From NCBI GenBank assembly GCA_963575745.1, contig CAUYUJ010000177.1:1-64000 (forward strand): a DNA stretch of 64,000 nt, read 5' to 3'. Each line of letters begins with the position of its first letter. Positions within the stretch are counted from its first letter, which is position 1. The DNA comes from Prorocentrum cordatum. Taxonomy: Eukaryota. A program made the position numbers and the translations under genes. Below are positions 7,428-49,331 of the stretch, in pieces. A model generated the notes under the pieces. It did not search any database. It saw only the letters and a program-made list of their open reading frames with translations, and had not been told where the DNA came from.

Positions 7428-9008
7428 ACTCCTGATGTTCCAACCTACTTTAGCCTTGATCACCAGAAAGAGTTTCGGGCACCAGGAAAGTACCGAAACT
7501 GGAGGGCTGTCACGCGTCGGGCCTCGGGGGGCGATCTTCGGCCAACGCCTCGCCAGCGTGTCGGGCAGACACTGCCTCGATGTTTCTCGGGGTGCTCGAA
7601 ACCGTTTCTGGGACGTGATCCTCCCCCTCCTCCTCCTCCTCCTCCTCCTCCTCCTCCTCCTCCTCCTCCTCTGGGAACAACATCACCCTGGACCCAGAGA
7701 TCCGACGCTCCAAAACAACTCAGGCTGGCGGTCTCTGGCCAGCCTCGGCCCCCGGGGGGGCCCTCGCCGGGCCTCGGGACCGTCCAAGAGAAGCGAGTCG
7801 GGGCGGAGCGCCGGCCCTCCTCCTCCTCGTCCTCGTCCTCCTCGTCCTCCTCGTCCTCCTCGTCCTCCTCGTCTTTCTCCTCCTCCTCCTCCTCCTCCTC
7901 CTCCTCCTCCTCCCCAGGGAAGGCCCGGTCAGGGCGGAGCGCCGGCCCAGGGGGGCGGTTCTGACCTCCGGGGCCCACGCATCGAAAAACCTGGAGCAGC
8001 CGGATGTCTGGGGGCATTCCATCAGGCAGTGGCGAGGCATTTTGGTTTGCCTCTAGGTCCTCCGAAGCATGTTCTGCGGCCTTTTTTGTGGCTTGCGCGA
8101 AATGGTGTTAGACCATTTCTGGCTGAGACCGTTTAGGTTCAATCCATCGGATTTTTGTTCCAAGGGTATTTTCTGTTGTGATTCGAGAAATCTGTTGTTC
8201 TACGAACATGTCGTGGCAGGCATTCAGGAATGCCCAGTCGGTCGGTGCCTTGACATTCTAAGCCTCCCAGATGGGGTCCGAGCAGATCGGGTCGAAGGAT
8301 CACGCCGTACCGCCGATGCATCGCCGATGCGGCTCGATGTGGAGCTCGAATTTCCACGCCAACGTCGCCGAGGCGTCGCCGCCGCCGCCGATGTATCGCC
8401 GATGCTCTGCCGAGGCGTCGGCGATACATCGGCGACGCATTGCGATGCGGTGCGAGCCTCCGACGGGCCCCACCCGGGAAGCCTCTAGACATGCCCGCGC
8501 CGGGGCAAGAATCGCGGCGGGAGGTCTCTTGGGTCGCGTTCGGCCTCCGAGGGGGCCCTCGCCAGGCCCCAGTCCGTCAAGACACGACGCGGGATGCCAA
8601 GCGGGCCCCTGGGAGGGGGTCAGGACTTCTGGAGGCCCCGCGCTTCTTGAAAGCGTGAGGGCGTCGCAAGTTTGAGTCCTGCGAGGTGGGCGACGGCGTC
8701 TGTCGGGTCGGCGTGGGGCAATAGGGGGCCGTCGAGCATCGAGGCTTTCTCGGGCACTGCTGTCGGTCCTCGCCGGTCTTCCAGCCTCGGGGGGTGCTCT
8801 CCAGCAGCTGCGCCTCGCCGAGAGCGTCTCGGTGGCGCCCGGGTCGTCCCGCACAGCCGCCGCAGATAGGGAAAGCGGGGGGTGCAGAAGCTGCTGCATG
8901 CAGCGAGCCTCGGCCCCGCCGCCGGACGCTTTCATCGACGCCTTGGCGCCTCCCGGCACCAGGAGGCGCCGGGAAAACCTGCGACATCAGCTGATTCGCT
9001 AGCGTTAA

Positions 9009-9168
9009 GTCGGGCCTGTCCCTCTACAGGTGGAATATTCAAAGATAGTCAAGAAATGGTCTGGGGACGATATTTCGACCATCTTTGAGAGCATTTTTGG
9101 AGGTGTTTTTTTGACTCTTTTCTTAAAAGTTGTCGTCCAAAATCCGCCTGTCGGGGGCACACGCCCGA
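9009..9168. mobile_element. MITE family B (TIR gtcggg..tgtccc..acagg), AT-rich core
   Basis: Ends are gtcgggcctgtccctctacaggtgga and tccgcctgtcgggggcacacgcccgac, flanked by ttaa and gtaa. Confidence 0.7.
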
Positions 9169-9415: not shown

Positions 9416-9910
9416 GCATCATCATCATCATCATCGTCAGCATCATCGTCAGCATCAGCATCATCATCATCATCAACATCAACATCATCATCATCATCAT
9501 CATCAGCATCATCGTCAGCATCATCATCATCATCACCATCGTCATCATCATCATCAGCATCAGCATCAGCATCAGCATCATCATCATCATCATCATCATC
9601 ATCTTTGCATCATCATCAGCATCATCATCTCGTCATCCTCATCCTCCTCATCATCATCCTCATTCTCATCCTCATCCTCATCCTCCTCCTCATCATCATC
9701 ATCACCGTCATCGTCACCGTCATCGTAATCGTCATCATCATAACCATTATCATCATCATCCTCATCCTCATTATCATCCTCATCATCGTCCTCCTCTACA
9801 TCATCATCATCATCACCATCATCATCACCATTATCATGATTATCATCATCATGATCATGGTCACCATCATCGCCGTCACCCACCGCCACCTTTGGTCTCA
9901 TCGTCGTCAT
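9323..9910. repeat. (CAT)n microsatellite, degenerating 3'-ward
   Basis: Direct reading of the sequence. Confidence 0.97.
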
Positions 9911-9914
9911 TACC

Positions 9915-9948
9915 CCGTAGCCAATGTTTGAGGCCATCTATGCGCAAG
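9915..9948 (+). other. Degenerate DinoSL relics upstream of Derlin
   Basis: CCGTAGCCA at 9915-9923 matches the SL 5' part. GCCATCTATGCGCAAG at 9933-9948 matches GCCATTTTGGCTCAAG at 12/16. Confidence 0.55.
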
Positions 9949-10057
9949 CCCTGCTCGCCGCAATGCTTGGCAATCTGGATCCACGCGGTGCCCGGTTAGC
10001 GATTTGCACGGAGGCTCGAGTGGCAGGCGTGACCACGTCTTTCGTCATAAACTGTTC

Positions 10058-10285
10058 ATGATGGTCTTCTCCATCGTGGGAACTCTGCCACCAGTTACGC
10101 GATGTTTGACCGTCGCGGCGGTCACGTTTATGCTACTGTGCTCTCTGGACGTGATACACCCTTACACCCTCGGCATGAACTGGCGTCTGGTCCTGTACGA
10201 GTGGCAGCTGTGGCGGCTAGCCACGAGCTTCCTCTATTTCGGGAATTTCGGACTGCAGTTTTTCGTAAACGTTTACATCCTGGTC
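10058..10285 (+). CDS. DER1: Derlin (Der1-like ERAD protein) exon 1
   Basis: MMVFSIVGTLPPVTR...WQLWRLATSFLYFGNFGLQFFVNVYILV contains the PPVTR and QxWRLxTxFLxFG Derlin signatures. The 3' boundary is set by homology (+/-2 nt). Confidence 0.93.
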
Positions 10286-10882
10286 ATCCCATGGCGTTGC
10301 CGCGGACATCCGCCCACGTACCTTCGGAACGGCACGGCTGCAGTGCGAGGTCTGGCGGCGGCCTGGCACGGCTGCTGCGATACCTCTCAGAGGGGCCTTT
10401 CTCGGGTCCTCGTGCGGACCTCTCTCGGGAGCCTCTCGGGGGGGCCCCTTGGAGCTCTTGGGGGCGCCGTTGGGGGAGCGCGGAGCTGTCTTGCTGGTTC
10501 TTGGGGCCGTCTTGCTGGTGGTGTGCCTTGGGGTCTACGAGCCTCTCGGGGCTGTCTTGGGCGGGTCTTGGGTCCTCTTGGGGCTGTCTTGGAGGCCTTG
10601 CGCCGTCCTGGGGCCGCCTTGGTGGCCTCTGGGGCGTCGTCCTGGAGCCTCGATGTGCCTCCAGGGCGCCGCCCCGAGCAGTCCAAAGGTCCTCCAAGGG
10701 GCCAAGCGAAGGCCGTCTTGAGCCCTCTTGGGCGACAAATGAAAACCGCCCGAACGCCGATAGGTTTCTCCAGGGGGCTCGCCCGGCTCGAGGCGCAGCT
10801 GAGGTCGGTGAGCCAGGCTGCGGGGGCGCAATTGGTTCGGGCAGTCATATGAGCTTGGGCACTGCGGTACCGCGTGCGGCGG

Positions 10883-10984
10883 ATGTATTGTTCCCGGCTG
10901 GAGGACGTCGCGTTTCAGGGCAGGTCCGTGGACTTTTTGTGGATGCTGGTGTCTGGCGGAGTGATGTTCCTTCTCCTGGCATCT
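10883..10984 (+). CDS. DER1: Derlin exon 2
   Basis: MYCSRLEDVAFQGRSVDFLWMLVSGGVMFLLLAS carries the YCxxLE..F...DFxxM motif. It is not in the ORF track. The 3' end could alternatively be 10978. Confidence 0.9.
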
Positions 10985-11762
10985 ATCAAGAAGACCCCAC
11001 CAGCTACATGCAGTGCCGTTTTTAACACGTGATCCGCGTGCGGATCATGTATGAAAGATGCAGGGATCCAGTACTAAAACACGATGAGCTCATGCATACA
11101 TTTATTCATGAATTCATCATGTATGACAAAACCAATATTTTGAATATCCTATGTGTTAAACGCTGCCCTGTACGCATCCTTCTGTCGGAGGCCCGCGCCG
11201 ATTCCCCTCCGCCCGCCCCCCCGTCCACGGCACGCGGAGCGCGCCACGGGCCGCGCTGCGGGCGCCGCCGGGTGGGCGGGCAGGGGAAAGTCCGGCCCTG
11301 GCCCGGGAGATCCGCTCGGGCCTCCTCCTCCTCCTCCTCCTCCTCCCTCCTGACTCCTCCTCCTCCTCCCCTTCCTCCTGCCTCCCCTCCTCTCCTCTCC
11401 CTCCCCCTCCTCTCCTCCTCCTCCTCCTCCTCCTCCTCCTCCTCCTCCTCCTCCCTCGGGCCTCCCCCGGGCCTCTGCCCTCCCAGAGCGCCGCCCACGC
11501 CTCCCTGCAGGGGCTCGAGGCGGGGCCCCTGGGCTTCTCCCCCAAGGTCAGGAGGAAGAGAAACACGCAGACACAGTTCATCGGCGATCCCCCAGAAAGT
11601 GTGGGCAAACATGGGCAGGCGGGGGGAAGACAGGCCCTGAAAACATGGGAAAACCTCAGCGGAACGATTTGATATATGTGTGCACTTCTTTGTGTGTCCT
11701 GGGGCCCCTTCACGTTTGTGTTTAATGCTTAGGCAGCTGATCGGTCTTCCGCTGTCCTTCGG

Positions 11763-11891
11763 GTGCAGAAGCACACGATCTCCTTCGTCGGCGGCTCGCT
11801 GATCGACATCATGATCTACGTGCTGGGGCGCCGCATGCACAGGGCCCGCTTCCGCGTGGGGCTCTTCCTGATCCGGGGGCCCTACCTTCCC
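11763..11891 (+). CDS. DER1: Derlin exon 3
   Basis: VQKHTISFVGGSLIDIMIYVLGRRMHRARFRVGLFLIRGPYLP carries the YVxxRR...PYLP motif. The 5' end could alternatively be 11769. Confidence 0.9.
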
Positions 11892-12291
11892 GGAGGGCTC
11901 CGGGAGGGACTGAGGCAGCCCCAGACGTCCGACGCTGGGTTGTCTCAGCAGCGTGGACCCCAGAGGTCAGGAGCGACAGAAGGACGTACATGTACATGAA
12001 TCCACGCTGGTTTCGAGAGTTCGCATTGCGCGAATGTTCGTATCGCGCGGCAGGTCTCGCGGGTCAAGGGGCCGTGTTCATGTACATAGCTGGGCGCGTA
12101 CGTCCTTTGTGTGCTCCCTAAGAGGTTTGGGGGCCCCTTCCCCAAGGGTGCCCTCGAGGGCGCGAAGCTGTTCGCGCCTCGCGCTTCGCGGTTCGGCTCC
12201 GACGCCTCCTCCTCCGCTTCCCTGGAGGGCGGCGCGGGGGCGCGAAGCTCTTTCGCGCAGCGCGCGGCGCGAGCCGCGAAGCTGGGCTTAT

Positions 12292-12474
12292 GTCGGGCGT
12301 GTCCCCTTACAGGGGTGATTTTCGACGAAAGATAAGATTACCCAAACAATACCCCAAGAAGGTCAAAAAAGACTAACAAAAATAGTCCCCAGACTATTTT
12401 AGACTATTTTTTGATTATTTTTGGGGTATGTTTTATTCTTCGTCGAAATCCCCCTGCAGGGGGACAGGCCCGAC
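12292..12474. mobile_element. MITE family B copy inside Derlin intron 3
   Basis: Ends are gtcgggcgtgtccccttacagggg and cccctgcagggggacaggcccgac, flanked by ttat and ttaa. A third, half copy starts at ~12544. Confidence 0.75.
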
Positions 12475-12784
12475 TTAAAGCTAGGCGCCCCTGTAGAGGT
12501 CTGGACCCCTTCCCTGGGACCAGTTTCTCATCCCGAGCTTGAAGTCGGGTGTGTCCCCCTACAGGTGAACTGTTCAACACTAGTTGGGAAATAGTCCGGT
12601 GACGCTGTTTTGGCTGCTTTGAGGCATCTTTCGATTATGTTTGAGTATCTTGTGAGTATTGTTCGGGGAGGAGGAGGAGGAGGAGGAGGAGGAGGAGGAG
12701 GAGGAGGAGGAGGAGGAGGAGGAGGAGGGGAGGAGGAGGAGGCCTTCTCTGCCTTGGCCCCCTCTGGAGCCCCCGGCCCATCCG

Positions 12785-12868
12785 TGCGCGCTGATACTCC
12801 TGTCGGTGGCGAGACATCCGCAGAGGATCCTGGACAGGCTGATCGGCTTCTTCGTCGGGCACGTCTAT
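12785..12868 (+). CDS. DER1: Derlin exon 4
   Basis: CALILLSVARHPQRILDRLIGFFVGHVY carries the D.xG..xGHxY motif. Confidence 0.88.
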
Positions 12869-14203
12869 CTGGCCGCCTGCGGCAAGTCCCGCCGCCGCTG
12901 TCATCGCAGCACGACGGAGGGTAGGGGTCGGAGGAGGACGAGCAGCGGGAGGAGGAGATGGAGGAGGAGGAGGAGGAGGAGGAGGAGGAGGAGGAGGAGG
13001 AGGCTCTCGGAGGAACAGCAGCAGGATGAGGATCAGGAAGAGCAGGAGTGAGAAGACTGCGCGCGACCTGGAACCGGGCGTTTGGCCACCGCTCTGAGGA
13101 GGAGGAGGAGGAGGAGGAGGAGGAGGGGATGGAGGAGATGGAGAAGTAGGAGGAGGAGGAGGAGGCGGCGGAGGAGCAGTGTAAACCCAAGACGCATCAG
13201 CGATGTTACGAGCAAACCTCCTTCCAAATTCCCCCTTCACAGGTCCCTACAAGAGCATCTGTTCGTGGTGGGACGCGTCCCGTTGGAAGACTGCAGTTTG
13301 TGAGTCCTCAATCCTGCCAAACCGCAATTTCTGGGATGCGCGTGACTGTTGCGTCCTGGTATTCCTGAGTGGTGCCAGAACGACATTGCTGGATTTCAAC
13401 TCCGCGAATCCAGATAACTGTTGCGTCTTGGCAGTCCTAGGTCGTGCCAGAATTTCAGCCATACGAATCCTTGAGCCTGCTGCACACCTTCACTACGAAT
13501 GTGCGCGGCGCCCAGGCCAGAGCCACCTTTTGAAAACCAGCCGCCGCCCTTGAGGTTGTTGCAGACTTTTACGACGAGGGCGATAAGCACACTATGAAAA
13601 GGAGCCGCCGTCTATTTTCGATACCATGGCGTATTCCAAACGTCAGGGCCCTCAATGGTGAGGAAGTCTCCAGCGACACGCTGGGCCAGTCCTGCGGACA
13701 CATTTCTGGGGGGGCGACAGGGATAAGCTACAGGCCTCGGAACAAATTAGCGAACACTCATGCCACATTCATCCGTCAACGCTTCCCCCTCCCCCCAATA
13801 TTCAAAGTTGGCGGTGGGTCTGATGAGATGCACTTGGGCCGCAGTGCCCCCGCGCGTGCCAACATTGAGTTTGGGGGGGAGGGGGAGTGTTCAGCAATTG
13901 TTTCCCTCTACCGTATTTCAAGGGGAAGGGATGGAGGTGGAGGGGGATAAAGGTTCAATGACAATGGAGGGAGGGGAGGGGGAGGTCCGGGCAGAACAGG
14001 GAGGACGGACGGCGGACAATGTGGGCTGTGACACCTATGAGATGACTGGTGCTGGAGGAGGAGGCGGAGGAGAAAGAGGAGGAGGGGGAGGAAGAGGGGA
14101 GAAGGAGGATCAGCCAGAAGAGGAGGAGGAGGATGAGGAGAAGGAGGAGGAGGAGCAGGACATTCCAACACGCTCCTACGTGTCAGGGGACACCGTGACG
14201 GAT

Positions 14204-14305
14204 TATTTCTTCGAAGACATATACCCCATGATGCCGACTGCCAACGGGTTTCGACTTTTTCTGACGCCGAGAGCGCTCAAGGTAATCTGTGGGCAGCGGG
14301 ATTGA
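14204..14305 (+). CDS. DER1: Derlin exon 5 (terminal, TGA stop)
   Basis: YFFEDIYPMMPTANGFRLFLTPRALKVICGQRD* carries the YFxEDxYP...TP motif. Confidence 0.9.
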   Translation, partial: YFFEDIYPMMPTANGFRLFLTPRALKVICGQRD

Positions 14306-15833
14306 CCTGTTTGCGTGGGCCATGTCTCACGACGCCTCCACGCCACTCTCTCTCCAGCCGTGGGGGAGGGGGGGCGTGAGGGAGGAGGGGTGGAGGAGGA
14401 GGAGGAGGAGGAGGAGGAGGAGGAGGGTAAACCCGAGATGCATCGACGATGCTGCAGTGCACTTGGTCGAAGTCCCCTTCTCATGCGTCCCGATGAGAGG
14501 GAGGCGCCCCCCCTTGAAAGACCAGCATCCTCTCGGGCCCGGTATTTGGGCGAGAGCCCCGCCTCGTACAGGAGCTGCTTCGCCTCCTCCTCCTCCTCCT
14601 ACTTCTCCATCTCCTCCATCTCCTCCTCCTTCTCCTCCTCCTCCTCCTCCTCCTCCTCCTCCTCCTCCTCCTCACACAGGCGCTGCTTTGCATCCTCCTC
14701 CTCCTCTTCCTCTTGGGGAGCGCGGCCGCGTAGCGGACTGAGAGACATCTGGGGCCCTGGCGGTCGTCAGCGTGCTGACGGTCGCCAGGGCCTCTTTCAT
14801 GACGTCCCCTCCTCCTCCTCCATCTCCTCCTCCTCATCACCTCCTCCTCCGTCTCCTCCGCCTCCTCCTCCTCCTCCTCCTCCTCCTCCTCCTCCTGGTC
14901 CGTGGATCCAGAGGGCGCGCGGGCAAAACAACGTGTAAAAAGTTGGGGTGGTGCGCCAGATGCGTCCCATATGCAGTCAAGAGCAGTGTTCCAGACGCGC
15001 AATGCAAATTATGCCATGGGATAGCGCAAACATGTGTCACACATGAGAACCTTCCATTGGAATTACTTTTTTTGCCCATTGTTGTCTTGGTCGGTCTCTG
15101 CGGCGGCGGTGAGCCCAATTGTTCGGATTGCCGTCGACCGCAGAAACCAGTTGTCTTACTAAATCATGGCCTGACCGCGCGGCCATCTTATCGTACAGGT
15201 CGGTATGTACTTCGTCTACAATGCCAGATCGAGGTTTGGAGTCTGCCCGTCCCAAGGCAGTCTCGTGAGATATATGCGAGTAATGTGCATGAGGGATGCC
15301 CATGATTACAGTCGGGTCGCTGAGGAAGGAACCCTTTTCGTTGGGGAGAGGCTCAGTGTTATTCCTCAATTGTTGTGCAGTGTTCCTTAGGTTTTCGATG
15401 GGACATCGAAATTTAAGTCATGGAAGAAATGGGCCTCGTTCCTTCTTTGGGGCTACTTCGGTCAATGCCCCCATTCTATTTCGCAAACGTGTGCCGTGGA
15501 ACTCGCCCGACTTAAGTTTGTCCGCTCTGGGCAGCAACAGAGGGTCTAGCGAATACAAACTTGGCCACCACACAACTTGAATATACATGCGCACACATAC
15601 ACATACATATAGACGTACACATACAACGGCGCACCGGGTCCGGGCGCCCGGGGCCGGCGCCGCTACCGCAAATGTGGGCCCCGGGGCCCTCGGGGAGCCC
15701 CGGGGCCTCACAGAAGGCCGCCAGAAGGCGCCAAGGAGGCCCCAAGAGGCTCCAGAACAGACCCGGGACGCCCGAAGGTTGCTCCCAGACGCCCAACTTG
15801 AACATACATGCGCACACATACACATACATATCA

Positions 15834-15864
<31 letters not shown>

Positions 15865-17379
15865 CAAGACTGCAGTGGCGCTTCGCGCCATGCACCTTGG
15901 TCCTTGAAATTTGGTATGCAGGCGGACTAACGGGAAGGTCAAGCCGACAATTTAGCGATAACTCCTTTTCCGGCATCGCCGCTATAATAATGTTATTCGT
16001 TATCCTTCCTCCATGCATCTTATTCCTACTTTTCGCCATGCCCTGCGCATTCTCCCCATCCTCCTCAGCTCTTTTTGCGGAGGCTCCTCCTTGGAGAGCC
16101 TCTGGGGGCCTCATGGGCGTGTTCTGGAAGCTTTCTTAAGGCCTTCTGGAGGCCTCCTGGGCGTGTTCTGGTGGGTTCTGGGGGCTTGTCGGGCCACCCT
16201 GCCTCCAACCGCGTTCTCCCTGAACGACCGGGTCACGATTTGGAATGCTTCGGAGGGTGTCTTAGGGCCATCTTGGGCCGCCATGGGGCTCCCTGGAGGC
16301 CGTCTTGGACCCCTGTTGTGCCGTTTTGGGGCTCTCCTGGACTGCCTGGAAGCCCTTTCGGATGGTTGTGGGGTCGTGGGGTGGAGGGAGGCGGGGGGAT
16401 GGTGGGTGTGGGTGTTGGGGGGGGGTTTTGTAGTGTGTGTTTGTGTTTTGTTTTTTCTTTTTTTTTTTTTTTTTCAGTACTTTTTTTTTTTTTTTTTTTA
16501 TGTTTTTTTTTATTTTTTCTTTTTTTTTTTTCTTTTCGGATGGTTGTGGTGCGATTTTGGAGCCTCCCAGGCGGCTTAGGACGCCCAGAAGACCGCCGTC
16601 TTGGAGCGTCGGGAAGCCGAAAAGAGGAGAACCCCAAAATAAGCCACAAACCAACAAAATCAACGATTTTCGCCTCGTGGGGCCTTCTTGGGAGTGCTCT
16701 TGGAGGCCTCTTGGGACGTTTCGGGACGATCTTTGGGGGTATGACGGCTTCTTGGGGGTCGTCGTCGACCGTATTGGGGCTCTCTGGGGTCGTTTCGGGA
16801 GCGCGCCACGTCCTGCGAGGCCCTGGGGGCCGCTTCGAGGCCCGTCCGGAGGGTCCCTAAGCCCCAGATCGCGGTAGTCCGGTTTTGGGGGGGGGGGCGG
16901 ACGGGTTCTCCCCCCGCCCGAGCGTGCAGAAATATAGAAAGAGGAATCCATTTATATATATATATATACATGTATATATATATATATATATATGACACAT
17001 GCACATTCTATTAGTAAGCAGCCCCCCCCCCCGCCGGCCTGGGCCGCCGGCCCCGCAGCCATCGGCGGACAGCCGGCCGCCGGTGCCGCGCCCCCTGTCG
17101 CTCCCCGGAGGCGCTCTTCTGGAGAGGCCACGAGGGCGCCAAGACGATGCCGACCGGGTTTCAAGAGGCCCCTATGCGGCGAAGATAGGGCGACGAGATC
17201 TATGCATATCCACTGCTCCTGGCCAGGCCAATCCTGGGCCCAGGAGCGGTGTATACGCCCTCCTGGCCTGGCCAGGGAGGCATATACACAGCTCCTGGGC
17301 CCAGGATGGGCCTGGCCAGGAGCAGTGGATATGTATAGATCTCGTCGCCCTACAAGAAGGTCCCGAGCTGCCCAATACG

Positions 17380-18480
17380 GCCTAGGAGGATTCCCAGGGC
17401 TCTCCCAAGAGGGGCCCAGGAGGCCCAGATCGTCTCATTCCTGTGGGACAGACGTGCAGTTTTGGCACGTGCGACTTGTCAGCTCTCGCGGCTGTGAAGT
17501 CGGTCCAAGACTTCCCCAAGACTTCCCCAAGGCAGCCCAAGACGTTCCCAGGAGGCCCCCGGGCCAGCCCAGCAGGCCGCCAAGACGGCCCGAGGGCCGC
17601 CTGAGACGCCGAGTTGGCCCCAAGACGGCGCCCAACACGGCCCAAGAAGGTTCCGAGTCGCCCAAGACTGCCCAAGATGGCCCCAAGAAGGTCCAAGAAG
17701 GCTCCAAACCCCAGGGGGTTCGAGTCAGGATTGCGCAACATCTTGCAGCTCTCAGCCTCTAGGATTCGCCTTGCAGGGCAATGCTGTTCTCAAGAGAGCA
17801 AAGCCCGCCTGCCTGTTCTTCGGGGCCTCCCCGCTCGATCACTCGGGGCCGCCGGCTGCCCGCCGGGATGTCCACCGACAGTTTCCTGTCCAAAAAAAAA
17901 GTCCAAAAAGGCTCAGAGGCGTCCCAAGAGGCCTCCAAGAGCACTCCCAGGAGGGCCCCAAGAAGCCACAGTTGTTGAATGCATACGGGGAAAGGTACAT
18001 TTCATCAAATGCGACTTTTCGGCCTTCACGGCTTTGAAGACGGTCCGAAAGGCTCCCCAGACTTGCCCAAAAGAGCCAAAGACACTCCCAAGAGGCCCTC
18101 ACGACAGCCCAAGAGGGGGCCAAGACGGCCCGAGGGCTGCCCAAGACGGCCGAAGAAGGCCCGAGTCGCCCAAGATTGCCCAAGATGGCCCCAAGAAGGT
18201 CCAAGAAGTCTCCGAGACGTCCTAAGAGTGCTCCAAGAGCACTCCCAAGAGGATCCCAAGAAACTTGATTCGTTACATTCCTGCTGGCGAAGCGTACATT
18301 TTTAGCATCTACGGTTTGGGGGCCTTCACGGCTTCGAAGACGGTCCGAGAGGCCCCCAATATTTCCCCAAGCGAACTGAAAACCCTCCCAAGTGGCCCCA
18401 AAGATAGCCCAAAACGACGCCAAGACGGCCCAAGGGCCGACTGAGACGGCTCCAGCAGGGGTCCAAAAGGGGAACTCCGA
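17380..18480. repeat. CCAAGA/GGCCC-rich dispersed repeat family
   Basis: Degenerate ggcccaaga/cccaagacg subunits. The same family occurs at ~10390-10790 (-), 16080-16870 (-), 23160-23990, 26500-27100, 38860-39880, 41550-42240 (-) and in the duplicate. Confidence 0.85.
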
Positions 18481-19314
18481 CTCGACAGTTGCAGCCTTCT
18501 GCCCAAAGAACCTCCCAGGAGGACACAGATGAGAAAACAGACGGCAGGAAACGACATATGCGTGATACAGATAATATGGAGGAAGTGGAGAAGAAGGACG
18601 AGGGGGGACGGAGAAGGAAACACACCACTCCTTGCCCGTGCCTCCCACCTGGACTATCCTCCTCCACAATGTTGAACTCTATTCCCCTTCTCCTCCAAAC
18701 TCCATCGGTCCTCCTCTTCGTCTTCTTCCTTCCTGCTGTCACAACGTTTGTGCTTATGCCACCGATAACTTCTGACGGTTCATCTTCGGCCGTCGTCTTC
18801 CTCTTCAATCCCCACTGACCCTCCGTCATCCTTCTCATCAATCTTCAAAGTATATCTTGAGCGTTCCTCCTCTAGACCTCTCTCTAAACCTCCTCCTGGC
18901 CGTTCAACAAAAATCCGATTTCAGGTCGCCCCTGGGACGTCGTCGCCGTCGTCACCTTTCGCCGGCCTTTCGCCGATTTTTTCTCGCAAAATTCCGATCC
19001 CCGGGGACGTCGTCCGGAATTGGAGGAAGTGGATGAGAGAGGTGTAGGAAAAGAAGAGGGAAGGGGAGGAGGAGGGGCAAAAAGAGGAGGAGGAGGAGGA
19101 AGTTCAATATAGCTCTGGAGGCTACAGCACACCGGCTCCAAACACTGACCATTGGTTTGACATCTAAAGCCGATGCCGCCCACGAGGCTTCTAGGACGCA
19201 TATTCAGATATGTATACATATACTTATGCACATACATAAAACCTATATACATATACGACCACCCTTCGGGTGATAAGGAGGTTGTGTGGGGGGGGAGAGG
19301 GGGGAACCGACATC

Positions 19315-20020
19315 TGACTCAATCGATCTCACTATCGATCTCACTCAACGGAATACCACGGGACACCACGGGACACCACGGGACACTTGTCGATCTCGCT
19401 ATCGATTTCACTATCGATCTCACTCAACGGGACATCACGGGACACCACGGGCCACCACGGGACACCACGGGACACCGCGGAACACTTCTCGATCTCACTA
19501 TCGGTCTCACGATCGATCTCACTATCAATCTCACTCAGCGGGACACCATAGGACACCACCGGACACCACGGGACACTTCGGGAAATCACAGCGATCTCAC
19601 TATCGATCTCACTATCGATCTCACTCAGCGGAACACCACGGGACACCAAGGGACATCACGGAACGCCTGTCGATCTCAGTATCGATCTCACTTTTTGGGA
19701 CACCACGGGACACCACGGGACACCACGGGACACCGCGGGCACCACATCGATCTCAGTATCGATCTCAGTATCGATCTCACTTTTTGGGACACCACGGGAC
19801 ACGACGGGACACAACGGGACACCTGTCGATCTCACTATCGATCTCACTATCGATCTCACTTTTTGGGACACCACGGGACACCACGGGACAGCACCACATC
19901 GATCTCACTATCGATTTCACTATCGATCTCACTATCGATCTCACTATCGATCTCACTCAACGGGAAACCACGGGACACCATGGGACACCACGGGACACCA
20001 CGGGACACCAGCGGGACACT
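19315..20020 (+). repeat. Composite minisatellite of 10-bp GGGACACCAC and 12-bp ATCGATCTCACT blocks
   Basis: Alternating runs of the two units. Duplicated at 61783-62490. Confidence 0.93.
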
Positions 20021-20309
20021 GCGCGGCACCGGCCGCCGGAGGACCAACATTTGGTCCGGCCGCGGCCCAGCCACAGGAGGATGTCGGGACACCAGCAGGA
20101 CACCGGCGGGGCACCTCGCGGCACCGGCCGCCGGAGGAGCAACTTTTGGTCTGGCCGCGGCCCAGCCACAGGAGGATTTCCTCTCGCCCGCCCACGCAGC
20201 TTCGCCTCGCACGCACGCACGGCACGCACGACACGAACCCGAAACCGAAATCGATTTCCCGGTAAGGGGGGTCTCCGTTTCACGTCGGACTCCCCCCCCC
20301 ACTTCCGAC

Positions 20310-20935
20310 CACATTTGCATACATATAACGATAACTATACATATACACATACACCTATTCATATACATTTACGGTTACATTTAAATATACATATCACTAT
20401 ACTTATACATTACATTATACATCTATATATCTATGTATATGTATATACATATAGATATGCATGCGCATACGCATAAACATATACCTGTACGCATACATAT
20501 TTACACACACATATTTATGCATACACAAAGACATGCGAGTGTACATGTTTCGGCACACGTACATATACCTATGCAGCTACATGTACATCTAAACATACAT
20601 TTACATAGACACACACATACATACACATGTACATTTATATTATACATTATACGTCATACATATACATGAACACGTACATCTACACATACTTTTACATGTA
20701 CAACTAAGCATACGTATACATATAGATACATATTCACGCATATACATATGCATGCACACATACACATGCACATACACGTACACATGCATATACACATGTG
20801 CGTATACTTATATTGACGCGTTTGCATGCACATATACAATTATACATTTACCTGCATATGAGTACATACACACGTATTCACATAGATATACATATATTTA
20901 CATATACATCTGCCTATACATACATACATATATAC
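20310..20935. repeat. Degenerate (TA/CA)n alternating purine-pyrimidine tract
   Basis: Direct reading of the sequence. Duplicated at ~62785-63405. Confidence 0.9.
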
Positions 20936-21032
20936 TGCGACGACGACTTTTTGGTCCATTCTTAGGTCGCTGTGGGATGGCCTCGAGAGGTTTTGGAAGT
21001 CACTTGGGCCGTTGGCGTAAGCACTGGTCACA

Positions 21033-22478
21033 AATTAGCCTGGCGAAGGACCCAACCATATGCAGTTGAGAGTACCGCAATTGTGAATCTCTTCTTCGGT
21101 GGCGCTCCCTATGGGGCCACGAGCCGTATGAGGGGTGTGCCGAAATGCGTGGCAGTGTACACAACACGAACGAAGAACGAAGACGATAGGTTCGAATATG
21201 AAAGCTTGAGCGCGTGCGAGTCGGATCGCGAGCGAGTCTGATTATGAATGAATCTGCGCGCGATTGATTCTATTCGCATGAATGCGTGCATGGATACGCC
21301 CAGTGTAAATGTATGTATACTACTGTGAACAGTTTGGGTCTGCGTGACTCTCGGTACTCGTGACTCTGAGCGTCGCCTCTGCAGGGGGCTTCCCTGGGAA
21401 CCCCGACGGCAGCGCCCGCGCGCCGCAACGCCCATGTCGGCACGCCACACACCTGGTGTGCGGGACGCATGCGGACGGCAGCACTGGGGCCTTCGGTGGA
21501 GCTCCCTGTGGGGGCCACGAAACGTGTGAGGGGTGTGCCGAAATGGGTGTGCGGGACGCATGCGGACGGCAGCCATGGGGCCTTCGGTGGAGCTCCCTGT
21601 GGGGCCACGAAACGTGTGAGGGGTGTGTCCTGGCCGAAAATGATGTCGGGACGCCAATGCGGGACGGCAGTACCACTGGGGCTTCGGTGGGAGCTCCCTG
21701 TGGGGCCACGAAACGTGTGAGTGGTGTGGCGAATGGGTGTGCGGGACGCATGGCGTACGGCACCATGGGGCCGTCGGTGGACTCCCTATGGGGCCACGAA
21801 ACGTGGGATGTGTTGTGCCGAAATGGTGTCGGGACGCATCGTAAGGCAGCCACTGGGGCCTTCGGTGGAGCTCCCTGTGGGCCACGAAACGTGTGAGGGG
21901 TGTGCCGAAATGGGTTTGTGCGACGCCGCATGCGGGCACACCCACTGGGACCTTCGGCGGAGCTCCCTATGGGGCCACGAAACGTGTGAGGGGTGTGCCG
22001 AAAAGGGTGTGCGGGACGCATGCGGGCACACCCACTGGGACCTTCGGTGGAGCTCCCTATGGGGCCACGAAACGTGTGAAGGGTTTGCCGAAATGGGTGT
22101 GCGGGACGCATGCGGGCACACCCACTGGGACCTTCGGTGGAGCTCCCTATGGGGCAACGAAACGTGTGAGGGGTGTGCCGAATTGGGCGTGCGGGACGCA
22201 TGCCGGCACACCCACTGGGACCTTCGGCGGAGCTCCCTATGGGGCCACGAAACGTGTGAGGGGTGTGCCGAAATGGGTGTGCGGGACGCAATGCGGACGG
22301 TAAGCCATGGGGGCTCCTCCCCCCCCCCCCCTTCGGTGGAAGTCCTCCCTATGGGGCCACGAAACCGTGTGAGGGGTGTGCCAAGTGGTGATGACGATGA
22401 CGAATGACGACGCTGACAATGACGATGAATGATTATGAATGATGATGCTGATATGATGATGAATGATGATGATGATGA

Positions 22479-24005: not shown

Positions 24006-26220
24006 TTCCCAACCACCCTGTGGTGTTGGGTCCTCGTTTTGAAGAGACAGCGCCCCGCGTCCCACCTCCTCTCCTCCTCCTCCTCTCCTCCTCCTCTCCC
24101 TCCACACACCCCTTACACGTTTCGTGGCCCCATAGGGAGCTCCACCGAAGGCCCCATGGCTGCCATCCGCATGCGTCCCGCACACCCATTTCGGCACACC
24201 CCTCACACGTTTCGTGGCCCCACAGGGAGCTCCACCGAAGGCCCCAGTGCTGCCGTCCGCATGCGTCCCGCACACCCATTTCGGCACACCCCTCACACGT
24301 TTCGTGGCCCCACAGGGAGCTCCACCGAAGGCCCCCGTGCTGCCGTCCGCATGCGTCCCGCACACCCATTTCGGCACACCCCTCACACGTTTCGTGGCCC
24401 CATAGGGAGCTCCACCGAAGGCCCCATGGCTGCCGTCCGCATGCGTCCCGCACACCCATTTCGGCACACCCCTCACACGTTTCGTGGCCCCACAGGGAGC
24501 TCCACCGAAGGCCCCAGTGCTGCCGTCCGCATGCGTCCCGCACACCCATTTCGGCACACCCCTCACACGTTTCGTGGCCCCATAGGGAGCTCCACCGAAG
24601 GCCCCATGGCTGCCGTCCGCATGCGTCCCGCACACCCATTTCGGCACACCCCTCACACGCTTCGTGGCCCCACAGGGAGCTCCACAGAAGGCCCCAGTGC
24701 TGCCGTCCGCATGCGTCCCGCACACCCATTTCGGCACACCCCTCACACGTTTCGTGGCCCCACAGGGAGCTCCCCCGAAGGCCCCATGGCTGCCGTCCGC
24801 ATGCGTCCCGCACACCCATTTCGGCACACCCCTCACACGTTTCGTGGCCCCACAGGGAGCTCCACCGAAGGCCCCAGTGCTGCCGTCCGCATGCGTCCCG
24901 CACACCCATTTCGGCACAACCCTCACACGTTTCGTGGCCCCACAGGGAGCTCCACCGAAGGCCCCATGGCTGCCGTCCGCATGCGTCCCGCACACCCATT
25001 TCGGCACACCCCTCACACGTTTCGTGGCCCCACAGGGAGCTCCACCGAAGGCCCCAGTGCTGCCGTCCGCATGCGCCCCGCACACCCATTTCGGCACACC
25101 CCTCACACGTTTCGTGGCCCCATAGGGAGCTCCACCGAACGCCCCAGTGCTGCCGTCCGCATGCGTCCCGCACACCCATTTCGGCACACCCCTCACACGT
25201 TTCGTGGCCCCACAGGGAGCTCCACCGAAGGCCCCAGTGCTGCCGTCCGCAAGCGTCCCGCACACCCATTGCGGCACACCCCTCACACGTTTCGTGGCCC
25301 CATAGGGAGCTCCACCGAAGGCCCAATGGCTGCCGTCCGCATGCGTCCCGCACACCCATTTCGGCACACCCCTCACACGTTTCGTGGCCCCACAGGGAGC
25401 TCCACCGAAGGCCCCAGTGCTGCCGTCCGCATGCGTCCCGCACACCCATTTCGGCACACCCCTCACACGTTTCGTGGCCCCCATAGGGAGCTCCACCGAA
25501 GCCCAGTGCGTGCCGTCCGCATGCGTCCCGCACACCCATTTCGGCACACCCCTCACACGTTTCGTGGCCCCACAGGGAGCTCCACCGAAGGCCCCAGTGC
25601 TGCCGTCCGCATGCGTCCCGCACACCCATTTCGGCACACCCCTCACACGTTTCGTGGCCCCATAGGGAGCTCCACCGAAGGCCCCATGGCTGCCGTCCGC
25701 ATGCGTCCCGCACACCCATTTCGGCACACCCCTCACACGTTTCGTGGCCCCACAGGGAGCTCCACCGAAGGCCCCAGTGCTGCCGTCCGCATGCGTCCCG
25801 CACACCAGTTGTGTGGCGTGCCGACATGGGCGTCGCGGCGCGCGGGCGCTGCCGTCGGGGTTCGCAGGGAAGCCCCTGCAGAGGCGACGCTCAGAGTCAC
25901 GAGTACCGAGAGTCACGCAGACCCAAACTGTTCACAGTCGTATACATACATTTACACTGGGCGTATCCATGCACGCATTCATGCGAATAGAATCAATCGC
26001 GCGCAGATTCATTCATAATCAGACTCGCTCGCGATCCGACTCGCACGCGCTCAAGCTTTCATATTCGGACCTATCGTCTTCGTTCGTGTTGTGTACACTG
26101 CCACGCATTTCGGCACACCCCTCATACGGCTCGTGGCCCCATAGGGAGCGCCACCGAAGAAGATATTCACAATTGCGGTACTCCCAACTGCATATGGTTG
26201 GGTCCTTCGCCAGGCTAATT
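24006..26220 (-). mobile_element. Composite non-autonomous element with internal 90-bp satellite (right copy, inverted)
   Basis: Head and tail match 21033-21455 and 22610-22672 in reverse complement. Confidence 0.75.
24105..25806. repeat. 90-bp tandem satellite, 19 highly homogeneous units
   Basis: ttcgtggccc recurs every 90 nt from 24121 to 25741. There are no unique spacers. Confidence 0.98.
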
Positions 26221-27464
26221 TTTCAAAACAAATATCATGAATCTTCGAGGGTTGGAAGCGGGAAAACGTACATAGGTACGTTCTATACATATGTATGTTT
26301 TTCTACACATAGCGAACGCGCGATAGTTCTAGTACATATGTAGCTCTACTTCTATCTCCAGCGAAGCGCGCGCGATAGTTCTAGTACATATGTATGTTTA
26401 TATATGTATGTGTGTGTATATATATATGTGTGTATATGTATCGGAGTAGGCTGGGGGAGGGCCCGGAACCGGCGCCTTTGGTTTGCATGGCGGTCTGGGG
26501 GGGCCTTGAGGACTCTAAGAGGGCTCAGAAGGGGCCCCGGACCCCCCCAGAGGCCCCCAAGCTGGCTCAAGAGGCTCCCAATGCGGCCCCGGTTGTTTGG
26601 AAGATGGCGGAAGAGCGGATGGCCTCCAGACGGGCCACGAGCACTCGAAGACAGCCCAAGATTACTCCTAGACGGCCACAACGGCATTCAAGACGATGGC
26701 CGCCGAGAAGGCCCCCCAAGGGCAAAAATCAAGCGTTTCCGAGGGAAAAGCGTCAACTTCCGGGATGCTCGCTTCTCGGTTCCCTCCATTCAGGAGGGGA
26801 AGAAACACAGCCACAATTAATCGTCGATTCCCAGGAAAATATAGGAAAATATGGGAAGTGGGGGGGAAGACAGAAACCCAGAAAATATAGGAAAATATGG
26901 GGAATCCTTTTATTTGTGTGTATTTATTTGTGTGTCCCAGTTCCCCTTCATACATGGTCCGCGACGGCCCCAGAGGCTCCCAAAATGGGCCCCAGACGGC
27001 CCAAGAGGCCCCTGAGAGGGCCCCAAGACGGCCCGAAGAGAGCTTCGAGCAGCGCAAGAGAGCTCCAAGACGGCCCAAGAGAGTACCCAGGGGGCCCGAG
27101 GGTAGGGGGCCACATGCGAACCCTACCCCACCCTCCCCCTCAGAAATCGTGGGGGGTAGGGGTAGGGTTCGCATCAAGCTAGCCAGCTCGAGCGAGTCAA
27201 GCATGGCATGCTCATTCGCACCCGCCCTCCCACAACATAAGAAACAGTGATGGCACAACTGGGGGCTGCGCGGGCATTTCAGTGCGAGTGGAGGATACCC
27301 CAGGACACCGCATTGACGTCCGCGCGGGATGTGCGCCGCGTCCCATTCCCGCCACGCATTTCGCATCGTCGACGACAAGACTGGCCATGTTGAAAGGAAC
27401 AACGGACACGTTCCGCCCTCCCACAACATAAGAAACAATGCTGGCGCAACTGGGTGCTGGCGCG

Positions 27465-28432
<968 letters not shown>

Positions 28433-28532
28433 NNNNNNNNNNNNNNNNNNNNNNNNNNNNNNNNNNNNNNNNNNNNNNNNNNNNNNNNNNNNNNNNNNNN
28501 NNNNNNNNNNNNNNNNNNNNNNNNNNNNNNNN
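28433..28532. other. Assembly gap (100 N)
   Basis: Run of n. Confidence 1.
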
Positions 28533-38112: not shown

Positions 38113-39084
38113 ACTGGTCCTTTGCTGCGTTCCTTGCTTGTTCCGTGGTGCGTCCCTTGCCACGTCCCCTGACACGTCCCCTGGCGCATCCCCGAATGCG
38201 CCCCTGACACCTCCCGTGGCGCGTCCATGCGCCCAGCGCCCCGTGTCCCGTCCCGCTTCGGAGCTGTGTCAGATCTTGAGCTCGAGCTGATTGGGCGTCC
38301 CACGCGTTTCGATTGCAAAAATCTTTGGGCCAGCTATTCTCTTTCTCTCAGGCAGCTCGAACTTGAGCTCTAAGTTAGTTCGGTCAGGGTTCGCTTTCCA
38401 AGGGCGACTTGATCCACAACGCTATAGAGCACACCGAAATTCATCGACGCATGGCACATCTCATTTCAGCACGGCACAGCACATCACAATCTTTGAAAGA
38501 GCGCGTTCTGTGGTCGCTTGGAGGGGGGGGAGGGGTTGGAACCGGACCCCCCCCCTGGATGGAGGGGGGAGGGTTCGAACCCCCCCCCCTCCCGTGACGG
38601 AAGGGGAAGGGGGTTCGAACCCCCCCCCTGCCCCCTCTCGTGACGGGGGGGGGGTTCGAACCCCCCCCCCTCCTGCTTCCCCTCTCCTCAGGCCGGCGCT
38701 GCCTGCGCTTGGGTCGGCGGCGGCTGGCGACGGCGGCGGGGACGACGATTATACATATAACGGCGCACCTGGTCTGGGGGCCCGGGGCCGGGACCACGAC
38801 CGCAAATGTGGGGACCGGGGGCTCTGGAGGCTCGTCGGGGCTTGCCGGCGGCCTCCCCGGTCAGACAAGACGGCCCCAGGAACGCCCAAGACGGCCCAAG
38901 AAACTTCCAAGAGGCCTCCAAGAGAGCTCCGAGATGCTGAAGATGGCCTCCAGACGTCCAAGGACGCCCCCAAGAGGCCCCAAGAAGCCTCCAACATGCG
39001 TCCCAAGAGGGCCCCTAGACGGGCCGTTCAAGAACCTCCATTCCAAGAGGCCTCCAAGACTCCGAGATGCTGAAGATGGCCTCC

Positions 39085-47225: not shown

Positions 47226-47526
47226 TATCCGACATGGACGGAAGCCCCGGGAGGGGATGCCGAGACCGCCCCCCCGGACTGCGGTCGGACCGAGGCGTGA
47301 GGTCGAGATCTGTTCGGGAAGGGTACTCTACATGTTGTTCGTGCCTGTTGGAGGTGCTTGTGCATCCTGGGGGGAGGTTGCCTCGAGTATTCTCTCCAGT
47401 GTGGGCCGGCGGAGGGTCGCAGGTTTCGGAGGCATGTTCTCCGGTCCCGGGTCCGGCCGTGCTCGGGGGGGCCTGCGGAGGCCAGCTGGGACTACCTGGG
47501 GGGCCTGTTGAGGCCAGCTGAGCTGA

Positions 47527-49331
47527 AGGGGCCCCAGGACACACAAACAAATACACACAAATGAAATGACGCCTCATGTTTTCTCATATTTTCTGGGTTT
47601 TTGTCTTCCCCACCAATTCCCATATTTTCCCATATTTTTTGGGGAATGGAGGATCAATTGTGCCTGTGTGTTTTTTCCCTCCGGATGAGCGACGCAAAAC
47701 AACGGGCTCGTTTTCACCGACGTTCGCGCGCAAGCTGCCCGCGCAGGGTCGCGCGGCCAGCGCCTCCTTCTCCGACGAGGTGGGCCTCGCTGGAGGCCCG
47801 CGCGAGCCGCGGTGCAGGGTCGCCTCGTCGCCTCGGGTGGGGCCCCTCTCTCGTCGTCGCCCAGCTGGGGCTGCCAGGTGGGCGGTCTGTGCGCCACCCG
47901 CAGCCTCGCCGTGCGGAGTCGTGGCCCCGCCGCCTCACCCCCCATGCTCCTCTTGGCGGCCGCGTCGAGCCTGGGCCCCCTGCGGGGTGGCAGCCCGGAG
48001 CGGGGAACGCGCTTGCCGGAGCAGTGGTCCAAGATGTGGCTTCCCAGGCCGAGCGCCCTGGCCCGCCAGACGAATTCATGCTAATTAGTTCTCGCCCCTT
48101 CCCGGGGTCTGCCGTTTTCCTCCGGGCTCTTTCTCCTCCTCCTCCCCCCTCCTCGGTGTCCTCCTTTGCCGCTGGGCTTCGCTGGATGGTGAAAAAAGTG
48201 TGTTCCCAGACCGGGTGGGTGACCCTCACAGAGAGCGTGCACGTCCCAGTGGTTCCCCTTGGTGGCAATTTGGCTCGGATGCCACCTCCGCATATCTGCT
48301 GATACGAAACGCGTTGATTATGGTCGGAGTTGCGGTCCAAGCAAGTGCGCGTGTCTCAGCACATGTGCTCAGGCTGGCACCTACTCGACGCCTGTTGTGG
48401 TCAGAGCGGACCGGGTGCTTACTTGACACCGCCGGTGTCCTGAGCGAGACTGGCGCCTTTTGAACACCCGAGGCGCGGAGGTCCCGTGTGGCGCTAAGTT
48501 TCTAGAGCGAACCCAGCGCCCATTTGGCTTCGCCGGTGTCTGGGGCGAAAACCCGTGCCCACGTGGCACCAGGGCTCGGGGGTCCCAGTGGAGAGGAAGG
48601 GGGATGGAGGATGGGAGGACGAGGAGGTGGAGGAGGAGGAGGAGGAGGAGTAGGAGGAGGATTACCATGCTCGCTACAGGCAGGGCCTCAAGAAGTCCCA
48701 TCCCAACCAGAAAAGCTTCCTCGTAAGTTGGACCCCTGGGGCTCTCTCGAGCCATGGCCCAAAACCTGGTGTCGTTGACACGCGTTCTCCACATGGACCC
48801 GCTCGGCCACGGACAGCGGCGCTGTGCCCACGGACTAGCTGCACCACGGCAGCTGACATCGGGCTTTGGCCATCCCAGGAACTTCAAGAATACGGCTCGT
48901 CGTAGGACAACCACTGGCTTCTGGCAGCCACACGTCGCAAGCTGCTCCAGTCTCCAACACTTCGCCGGTGACCGCCTCATCGGCAAACGTGGGCTCAGTC
49001 CGCCGGCCTTGCCAGGCCGCCCGAGGGCTGCTTCTGCCCGACGCCGCACGCGTGGCGAAGCACGCTGACCTTCTTTCTCGTGGCCCCTGCGACGGTGGGC
49101 CACGCCGCGCGGCCCCGCCCTTGGGGCGCGATGTGCGGCTGTGATCGAGCTCGTGCGGGTGACCCCGTCTCTCAGGAGGGAAAGAAGCACACAGACACAA
49201 TCAATCTTCGATTTCCAGGGTAATATGGAAAAAATATGGGAAGTGGGGGGGAGACAAAAACCCAGAAAATATGGGAAAATATGGGGACTCCTTTTATTTG
49301 TGTGTATTTATTTGTGTGTCCCAGTTCCCCT
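47527..49331. mobile_element. Putative 1.8-kb element bounded by ~155-bp inverted repeats
   Basis: 47527-47682 is the reverse complement of 49175-49331. A solo arm lies at 26793-26947. Confidence 0.5.

Follow-up and report, generated by a model that had tools for sequence, protein, structure and literature searches.

Candidate non-canonical introns bounded by short direct repeats in a dinoflagellate-type Derlin gene

A Derlin gene on the forward strand of contig CAUYUJ010000177.1 (assembly GCA_963575745.1), within the 64,000-nucleotide (nt) stretch that we analyzed as a whole and refer to as the window, is interrupted four times at borders that, by homology, mostly lie outside the G[T/C/A]-AG pattern of conventional dinoflagellate introns. 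The interruptions belong to an intron type already described in dinoflagellates, and we favor with moderate confidence the view that they are non-canonical introns of dinoflagellate type that arose from inserted non-autonomous DNA elements. Short direct repeats flank all four introns and a convincing terminal stem is found at only one, which argues that the boundary repeat, rather than a stem or hairpin, is their constant feature. How dinoflagellates recognize introns without a fixed terminal dinucleotide is an unsolved problem, and gene models in their very large genomes rest on assumed splice rules; Derlin offers a clean test case, as its strongly conserved protein pins the junctions to a few bases. 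The main yield is one more example of a phenomenon already on record, together with the correction of an earlier, too general account in which all four introns had been described as having complementary ends.

Homology defines five Derlin exons

Junctions were derived from homology to a set of 152 Derlins, 92 of which (those of 200-300 residues) were used to build a hidden Markov model (HMM). The five exons placed in this way are as follows.

10058-10285, forward strand: exon 1, with ATG at 10058; 76 codons; Pfam DER1 (PF04511), E 5.1e-17, profile positions 1-66
10883-10993, forward strand: exon 2; 37 codons; DER1 profile positions 68-99; gapless against homologue P0121
11772-11888, forward strand: exon 3; aligned with homologues without gaps
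12782-12868, forward strand: exon 4; gapless against homologues; identical duplicate at 55580-55663 (tblastn 100% at both)
14204-14305, forward strand: exon 5 and stop codon; ends ...GQRD before the stop; C terminus like that of P0121

Judged by homology, the gene is real and its exon structure established. Exon 1 scores 62.9 bits against DER1 (cut-off 26.6) and can be aligned with homologue P0172 from residue 1, exon 2 scores 22.8 bits, and the profile runs on across the first junction, with V76 of exon 1 at position 67 and the M of exon 2 at position 68. The remaining three exon pieces are individually below scorable length for Pfam. Joined, the exons (10058-14305) rebuild a 214-residue member of the Derlin family that scores 201.4 bits with the HMM and is free of gaps at its junctions; the homologues have 211-215 residues. 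Alignment with P0121 (215 residues) gives 98 identities in 210 positions and a single 1-residue gap distant from all four junctions, both proteins terminating in ...QRD, and alignment with P0172 covers 214 columns with 2 gaps. Identity to Derlins of 211-215 residues is 47-58%, with 50-58% to proteins of 211-214 residues, among which are one under the name Amoebophrya sp. A25 and one under that of Effrenium voratum. Across the 214 open codons all family-conserved positions are aligned, and GC content in the coding sequence is 0.785 at third codon positions (GC3) versus 0.374 at second positions (GC2).

Short direct repeats mark every intron border

The four introns (i1 to i4) are bounded by direct repeats within which each border can slide without changing the protein.

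10286-10882, forward strand: i1, 597 nt; slides by the 2-nt repeat AT (10286-87 = 10883-84)
about 10994-11771, forward strand: i2, 778 nt; slides within the 5-nt repeat AGAAG (10989-93 = 11767-71)
about 11889-12781, forward strand: i3, 893 nt; slides within the repeat TCC (11888-90 = 12781-83)
12869-14203, forward strand: i4, 1335 nt; slides by the repeat AT (12867-68 = 14202-03)

In a sample of 20,000 randomly chosen pairs of positions in the window, a repeat of at least 2 nt occurs with P 0.176, of at least 3 nt with P 0.062, and of at least 5 nt with P 0.008. That all four arose by chance is unlikely, at roughly 0.005-0.02 in our own combination of these values, the upper figure of 0.02 allowing for the choice among equivalent placements at i2 and i3.

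Sliding does not bring a conventional border within reach. The terminal dinucleotides available to i1 are AT-GG, TC-GA, and CC-AT (or CA-CG), never G[TCA]-AG; those of i3 are TC-CA, CC-AT, CC-TC, CG-CC, and GG-CG; and those of i4 are AT-GG, TC-GA, and CT-AT. None of the 18 protein-equivalent placements over the four introns combines a G[T/C/A] start with an AG end. Homology thereby places the borders of i1, i3, and i4 outside G[TCA]-AG, and the same probably holds for i2. Junction 2, which lies in a variable loop, is the least certain, with the non-canonical placement gapless against the 215-residue P0121. Its 3' border falls at 11766-11771 by homology, so that the border at 11749 given in a preliminary description of this region is probably wrong; the intron proposed there, 10990-11749, would add six residues.

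The borders of i1 and i4 resemble each other in their letters: both introns start with ATC and end with CGG, and both are followed by an exon beginning with AT (10286-10288 and 10880-10884 in i1; 12867-12869 and 14199-14203 in i4). This shared ATC...CGG|AT pattern, seen in two cases only, is possibly a real non-canonical signal.

Pairing between intron ends is convincing only in intron 3

The preliminary description held that each Derlin intron has mutually complementary ends, and offered two interpretations, an RNA-level stem that substitutes for splice signals or eroded terminal inverted repeats of introner-type transposons. RNAduplex runs on exactly the segments it listed recover the pairings. 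The i3 segments 11890-11918 and 12749-12776 form 26 pairs (22 Watson-Crick, 4 G-U; -48.2 kcal/mol), whereas those of i2 (10990-11007 with 11733-11749) form 12 Watson-Crick pairs (7 + 5; -16.5 kcal/mol) and those of i4 (12873-12890 with 14187-14201) form 13 pairs in four short runs (-15.8 kcal/mol). Three helices of 11, 9, and 7 pairs are available to i1, the first two mutually exclusive. The arms considered below are:

10306-10314, forward strand: 5' arm of the i1 inverted repeat, ACATCCGCC; partner 10878-10886
10990-10996, forward strand: 5' arm of the i2 inverted repeat, GAAGACC; partner 11743-11749
11890-11918, forward strand: 5' arm of i3, the only well-supported terminal stem; partner 12749-12776

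These arms lie differently relative to the borders. The 5' arm of the i1 helix begins 20 nt into the intron and its 3' arm includes exon 2 bases 10883-10886; the 7-bp helix of i2 has its 5' arm at the border and its 3' arm ending 17-22 nt before the corrected 3' border (a second i2 helix, of 5 bp, joins 11001-11005 to 11735-11739); and the i3 stem is separated from the exons by 0-2 nt on the 5' side and by 5-8 nt between its 3' arm and exon 4.

We compared the first and last 60, 40, and 25 nt of each intron, at the homology-corrected borders, with 300 dinucleotide shuffles each. The numbers of shuffles that reached the observed energy were:

60-nt arms: i1 237/300, i2 264/300, i3 5/300, i4 175/300
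40-nt arms: i1 60/300, i2 138/300, i3 2/300, i4 156/300
25-nt arms: i1 56/300, i2 83/300, i3 3/300, i4 77/300

Only i3 beats its shuffles. The earlier claim of complementary ends in every intron does not hold up: the ends are clearly complementary in i3 (2-5 of 300 shuffles), i1 has a perfect 9-bp helix but no advantage in energy, the 7-bp helix of i2 is borderline, and i4 is at chance. The borders of the preliminary description, taken with exon flanks, give the same overall picture, with 12/300 for i2 at 40-nt arms. Nor do cognate ends stand out among mismatched ones: their summed energy ranks 5th of 24 permutations of 5' against 3' ends, and the four 5' ends are nearly equivalent as partners for the 3' end of i1 (-39 to -41.7).

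Against 2,500 GC-matched pseudo-introns drawn from the window, the energy P values in the order i1 to i4 are 0.13/0.09, 0.63/0.51 (at the corrected border of i2), 0.006/0.03, and 0.28/0.71; only i3 is unusual. The longest perfect helix, compared with 4,000 pseudo-introns, is 9 bp in i1 (P 0.005), 7 bp in i2 (P 0.056), 7 bp in i3 (P 0.056; 10 bp with G-U pairs, P 0.042), and 5 bp in i4 (P 0.50). When whole introns are folded with 15-nt flanks, the i1 helix is the only one of those listed to form, with pair probabilities of 0.87-0.99, and the stems of i2, i3, and i4 are absent from the minimum-energy folds; the 5' arm of i3, itself a local palindrome, makes a local hairpin instead.

The many G-U pairs had been read in the preliminary description as a sign of an RNA-level stem. 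Sense and antisense duplexes have energies of -33.5/-31.2 in i1, -24.4/-30.1 in i2, -50.8/-53.5 in i3, and -22.2/-29.8 in i4, so that the antisense duplex is as good or better in three of the four introns (null difference 0.33 +/- 7.7), and a sense-strand G-U signature was not found. Because the antisense strand pairs just as well, the G-U pairs are no evidence of selection on RNA, and the strand symmetry of the pairing fits repeats at the DNA level.

We weighed functional RNA stems against these results as an explanation in which the paired ends of the precursor messenger RNA (pre-mRNA) define the excision sites and replace splice signals, as in the nonconventional introns of euglenids and hemistasiids; we regard it as unlikely. 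Conventional signals are indeed missing at the homology-inferred borders of i1, i3, and i4, the i3 stem has 26 pairs, the i1 helix reaches a probability of 0.99 in the full fold, and hemistasiid diplonemids are reported to have introns whose ends base-pair (PMC12621601). One i3 placement, 11888-12780, also agrees with the Euglena code N3-CDG...CH'G-N5 apart from its exon, which begins with T instead of a purine. Yet three of the four introns fail to beat shuffles, i4 offers nothing, the sense strand has no advantage, and the distance from stem to border differs in each intron. The full Euglena signature, N3CDG...CH'GN5-6 followed by a purine in the exon (PMC12501133), fits none of the 18 placements completely, and 17 fail it outright. 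Moreover, the lineage is dinoflagellate rather than euglenozoan, as the spliced-leader relict and Derlin tree described below indicate. The proposal that a stem replaces splice signals thus keeps its first half, the missing signals, and as a general feature loses its second, since a stem better than the controls is seen in i3 only. There, a hairpin that helps to bring the ends together is plausible, and dispensable for explaining the data.

Much longer complementary tracts lie inside the introns. The (CCT)n tract of i2 (11392-11454) is complementary to the (GGA)n tracts of i3 (12679-12742) and i4 (12947-12990) over 55-63 nt at 90-96%, and its pairing with them in the pre-mRNA would bridge or loop out exon 3. 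Such duplexes are far stronger than any terminal stem, which also counts against RNA stems as the means of defining the excision sites.

Conventional splice models at three junctions require insertions that nearly all homologues lack

All splice models that stay in frame without a stop, up to about 45-90 nt from each border, were scored with the HMM.

i1, 3,471 models: best 201.4 bits; best G[TCA]-AG 187.6 (loss 13.8)
i2, 2,416 models: best 206.7 bits; repeat-bounded 201.4; best G[TCA]-AG 200.5 (loss 6.2)
i3, 6,035 models: best 201.4 bits; best G[TCA]-AG 190.8 (loss 10.6)
i4, 6,041 models: best 201.4 bits; best G[TCA]-AG 193.3 (loss 8.1)

The top-scoring model is non-G[TCA]-AG at all four introns. 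As bit scores alone show only the insertion penalty, insertions were also counted in real homologues: among those that span the junction, 127 of 129 at junction 1, all 141 at junction 3, and all 128 at junction 4 have no inserted residue within 3 columns. The two exceptions at junction 1 (P0016 and P0149) have inserts of 41 and 60 residues, GC-rich and of low complexity, one column off the junction. These inserts look like translated introns, which hints that an intron near the position of junction 1 is present, and mis-annotated, in other GC-rich species.

On these grounds it is likewise improbable that the introns are conventional (GT/GC/GA-AG, as a rule with G after the AG), with lineage-specific extra residues in the exons and with end pairing that amounts to chance in low-complexity, GC-rich sequence. 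All four introns do have G[TCA]-AG models that stay in frame (for example, 10296-10853 with GT-AG, 11003-11771 with GC-AG, and, in i4, 12882-14186 with GC-AG, then G), the energy of pairing is at chance in i1, i2, and i4, and the weakest-pairing introns, i2 and i4, have the cheapest conventional models (6.2 and 8.1 bits versus 13.8 and 10.6). Conventional splicing would, however, mean that about 13 residues were inserted at junction 1, and about 9 or more at both junction 3 and junction 4, insertions that are missing from all but two (both at junction 1) of the homologues just counted, and its models lose 8-14 bits at i1, i3, and i4. The non-canonical model already yields a protein collinear with homologues of 211-215 residues, and the boundary repeats would be left without an explanation.

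Lineage and condition of the gene

The lineage of the contig can be read from a marker outside the Derlin gene and from the Derlin protein itself.

52871-52891, forward strand: relict dinoflagellate spliced-leader-like sequence, followed directly by ATG

Of its 21 bases, 18 match the DinoSL motif, and none of 100 shuffles gave a hit. It sits just after a (CCT)n(CAT)n run, and the open reading frame (ORF) behind it has no Pfam match. The segment 52871-52893 is possibly a re-inserted complementary DNA (cDNA). Spliced-leader relicts derived from re-inserted cDNAs are known in dinoflagellate genomes (PMC7789003).

A maximum-likelihood tree built from 36 Derlins unites the protein encoded in the window with the Effrenium voratum protein and MMETSP transcripts in one clade (support 86/93), to which the Amoebophrya A25 clade is adjacent. 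The placement is tentative because the window protein has a long branch. The observations suit a GC-rich, free-living dinoflagellate as well as a syndinean. A euglenozoan origin, which we had considered first on account of the intron type, was rejected on the strength of the spliced-leader relict and the tree.

A dead or dying copy, in which an uninterrupted and possibly retroposed Derlin was broken by four unspliced insertions recent enough to leave the exons intact, is the least probable explanation: the long terminal branch, the repeat-rich region with a partial duplicate whose exon 5 has decayed, the missing match in large protein collections, and the restriction of strong codon periodicity to about 11% of 180-nt windows would suit it, but it must contend with 214 open codons, a strong GC3 bias, and the alignment of all family-conserved positions, and would need four independent insertions that are each exactly restorable in frame. 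Words from the region also occur in RNA: of the words sampled from 9900-14500, polyA RNA runs contain a fraction of 0.15-0.18, close to what the exons make up rather than the whole stretch, which as a share of unaligned words speaks weakly for expression and against a dead copy. Some part of the stretch is contained in 14 of 24 sequencing runs.

Origin of the introns

Of the two interpretations offered earlier for the intron ends, eroded inverted repeats of introner-type elements fit better, since all four junctions lie in short direct repeats and the pairing is strand-symmetric. On this model, non-autonomous DNA elements would have inserted into the Derlin gene, and their target-site duplications would persist as the boundary repeats, one copy of which is kept in the message. 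The terminal inverted repeats would then have eroded unequally, in the order i3 > i1 > i2 > i4, such that i3 retains them well, i1 and i2 in part, and i4 not at all, and the microsatellites, dispersed repeats, and foldback element would have been acquired later. A spliceosome with no need for fixed terminal dinucleotides could remove the resulting introns. We infer excision exactly at these junctions, removal by the spliceosome, and an origin from transposons.

Several observations weigh against this account. Apart from matches in a segmental duplicate and in microsatellites, none of the eight intron termini recurs in the 64-kb window, so that direct signs of a mobile family are lacking. The interpretation of the ends as eroded transposon repeats therefore gains from the junction repeats and strand symmetry and loses from the lack of other copies in the window. 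Intron 4 has no inverted repeat and end pairing at chance, the repeats of i1 and i4 are just 2 nt and so under the published definition of 3-5 nt, and the i2 and i3 placements were picked among protein-equivalent options, which flatters the repeat statistics. At i2, the GC-AG model 11003-11771 needs only 3 extra residues and lies 0.9 bits below the repeat-bounded model, and the homology evidence would remain compatible with lineage-specific insertions. The branch of the window Derlin has a length of 1.1 against a median of 0.12, which could be a sign of relaxed constraint. Finally, a search of 5.8 billion clusters yielded no protein that is identical to exon 1 or close to it, so that no annotated or transcript-derived product backs the gene model. 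Searches with exon 1 returned only two homologues among longer proteins (45-46% identity) and no matches among proteins of similar length; a metagenome scan with the exon 1 protein gave 430 pattern matches, none of them confirmed, and one with a 24-nt string from exon 2 gave no matches.

Comparison with known intron systems

The introner elements of Amoebophrya, likewise of the dinoflagellate lineage, are among the closest known parallels. In strains A25 and A120, more than 60% of introns are non-canonical and lack a preferred terminal dinucleotide (Farhat et al. 2021, PMC7789003), and that report further describes inverted repeats of 8-20 nt and direct repeats of 3-5 nt over the borders in 11-30% of these non-canonical ones, with a splice site whose position varies relative to the hairpin. 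By homology, the Derlin introns likewise appear to lack GT-AG or any common dinucleotide at the borders, and they resemble the Amoebophrya introns, though not uniformly, in inverted repeats at the ends, short direct repeats at the borders, and the variable position of the splice site with respect to the hairpin. Measured against the published lengths, the inverted repeat is strictly long enough in i1 (9 bp) and loosely so in i3, and not in i2 (7 bp) or i4 (5 bp), and the direct repeats AGAAG (i2) and TCC (i3) fall within 3-5 nt while AT (i1 and i4), at 2 nt, does not. Two of the four boundary repeats thus differ from those of Amoebophrya, as does the one intron without an inverted repeat. The Derlin introns are also longer (597-1335 nt) and filled with repeats, whereas the Amoebophrya means are 120-240 nt in an analysis capped at 1000 nt (PMC7789003); their inverted repeats are GC-rich and, as far as the A25 and A120 families are described there, lack the TTA or TAT motifs with which those start. 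The Derlin locus is gene-poor and the Amoebophrya genomes are compact, and the window Derlin groups with the clade of the core dinoflagellate Effrenium voratum and not with the A25 protein.

Identical repeated intron boundaries (IRIB) of 2-9 bp have been described in dinoflagellates (Mendez et al. 2015, PMC5032977). As in that account, the Derlin repeat stands at both borders and, by homology, once in the message, so that the exact cut cannot be placed, and the lengths of 2, 5, 3, and 2 nt at the homology-inferred junctions lie within the IRIB range. The IRIB repeat, however, always holds GG and often AGG, and its introns are read as U2-like (PMC5032977), whereas the Derlin repeats are AT, AGAAG, TCC, and AT, with AG offered by i2 only.

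Introns with terminal inverted repeats ("IE+") are also known from free-living dinoflagellates, including 2.4% in Prorocentrum cordatum (Dougan et al. 2023, PMC10666404), where customized gene-finding tools allowed for donor sites of the GC and GA kind. In Symbiodiniaceae and Polarella, introner-like elements have inverted repeats that end at an AG 3' site, and 4-nt duplications from which their G[TCA]-AG sites derive (bioRxiv 10.1101/2020.10.14.339549, Roy et al.). Both resemble the Derlin introns in combining inverted repeats at the ends with short direct repeats, which are interpreted as remnants left by DNA transposons. The Symbiodiniaceae elements nevertheless use G[T/C/A]-AG, with one copy of the 4-nt duplication as the 5' site, and form sequence families, whereas the Derlin borders are not G[TCA]-AG by homology and no family member was seen in the 64 kb searched; an AG is absent from the 3' border of i1, i3, and i4, and the repeats measure 2, 5, 3, and 2 nt.

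Outside the lineage, the closest mechanism is that of the nonconventional introns of euglenids (PMC12501133, PMC3935182, PMC4770533) and hemistasiids (PMC12621601), which likewise have variable borders and a proposed stem that joins the ends. Diplonemid introns are short, with medians of 37-91 nt (PMC12621601), in contrast to the 597-1335 nt of the Derlin introns.

The low coding density, the long, repeat-filled introns, and the grouping of the Derlin with the Effrenium voratum clade are the basis for a broader and doubtful suggestion, namely that splicing of the Amoebophrya kind, with no fixed terminal dinucleotides, is also used by a free-living core dinoflagellate with a large genome. If this were true, a housekeeping gene in which all introns are non-G[T/C/A]-AG would show such splicing beyond compact parasite genomes, and pipelines that accept only GT/GC/GA-AG would systematically miss or mis-model such genes and would need revision. 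The same pipeline bias would account for the missing matching protein in large collections, and the ATC...CGG|AT motif of i1 and i4 could be the first hint of a non-canonical splice signal.

Genomic surroundings and repeats

The window is laden with repeats, and its GC content varies between 47 and 71% per 2 kb. The translations of 215 further ORFs matched no other Pfam family, with three weak low-complexity matches below cut-off, and strong codon periodicity is confined to about 11% of 180-nt windows, many of which are trinucleotide repeats; Derlin therefore sits in gene-poor, repetitive DNA.

Part of the gene is included in a segmental duplication.

12709-21154 and 55503-63622, forward strand: segmental duplication of about 8.4 kb; four blocks at 96.5-99.7% in self-BLAST

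The duplication begins inside the (GGA)n array of i3 (12667-12742), and of the Derlin gene its second copy includes exon 4, intron 4, and exon 5 in decayed form, without exons 1-3. Intron 4 is 99.9% identical to 55664-56992 (over 1330 nt). In the block that holds exon 5 and about 335 nt downstream (14193-14640 versus 56988-57430), single-base indels and mismatches are dense, the frame of exon 5 is broken in the second copy, and the divergence begins about 10 nt before the exon 5 border. Candidate causes of this divergence are an older copy, patchy gene conversion, or poor polishing.

The intron interiors consist of ordinary repeats, as had been described earlier, among them arrays of (CCT)n and of (GGA)n. 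Copies of a dispersed repeat, roughly 165 nt long and 73-90% identical, occur at 11548-11712, within i2 and 59 nt from its 3' border, as well as at 26790-26950, 47524-47682 (reverse strand), and 49172-49332. Nested in i3 is a foldback (palindromic) element of about 200 nt (12292-12485) with a third, partial arm at 12533-12578; a 36-nt piece of it matches 8999-9034 on the reverse strand at 89%.

Rfam returned no matches in the window at the gathering score. ARAGORN predicted a convergent pair of tRNA genes separated by 5 nt, Ser(GGA) at 38524-38593 on the forward strand and Val(CAC) at 38599-38672 on the reverse strand; given that Rfam finds no tRNA, the pair may be degenerate or false. A tandem array of about 19 copies of a 90-nt unit (96-99%) extends over 24105-25806 within a 712-codon open frame on the reverse strand, and an inverted, more diverged array (84-92%) lies at 21455-22315. 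A scaffold gap of 100 N occupies 28433-28532.

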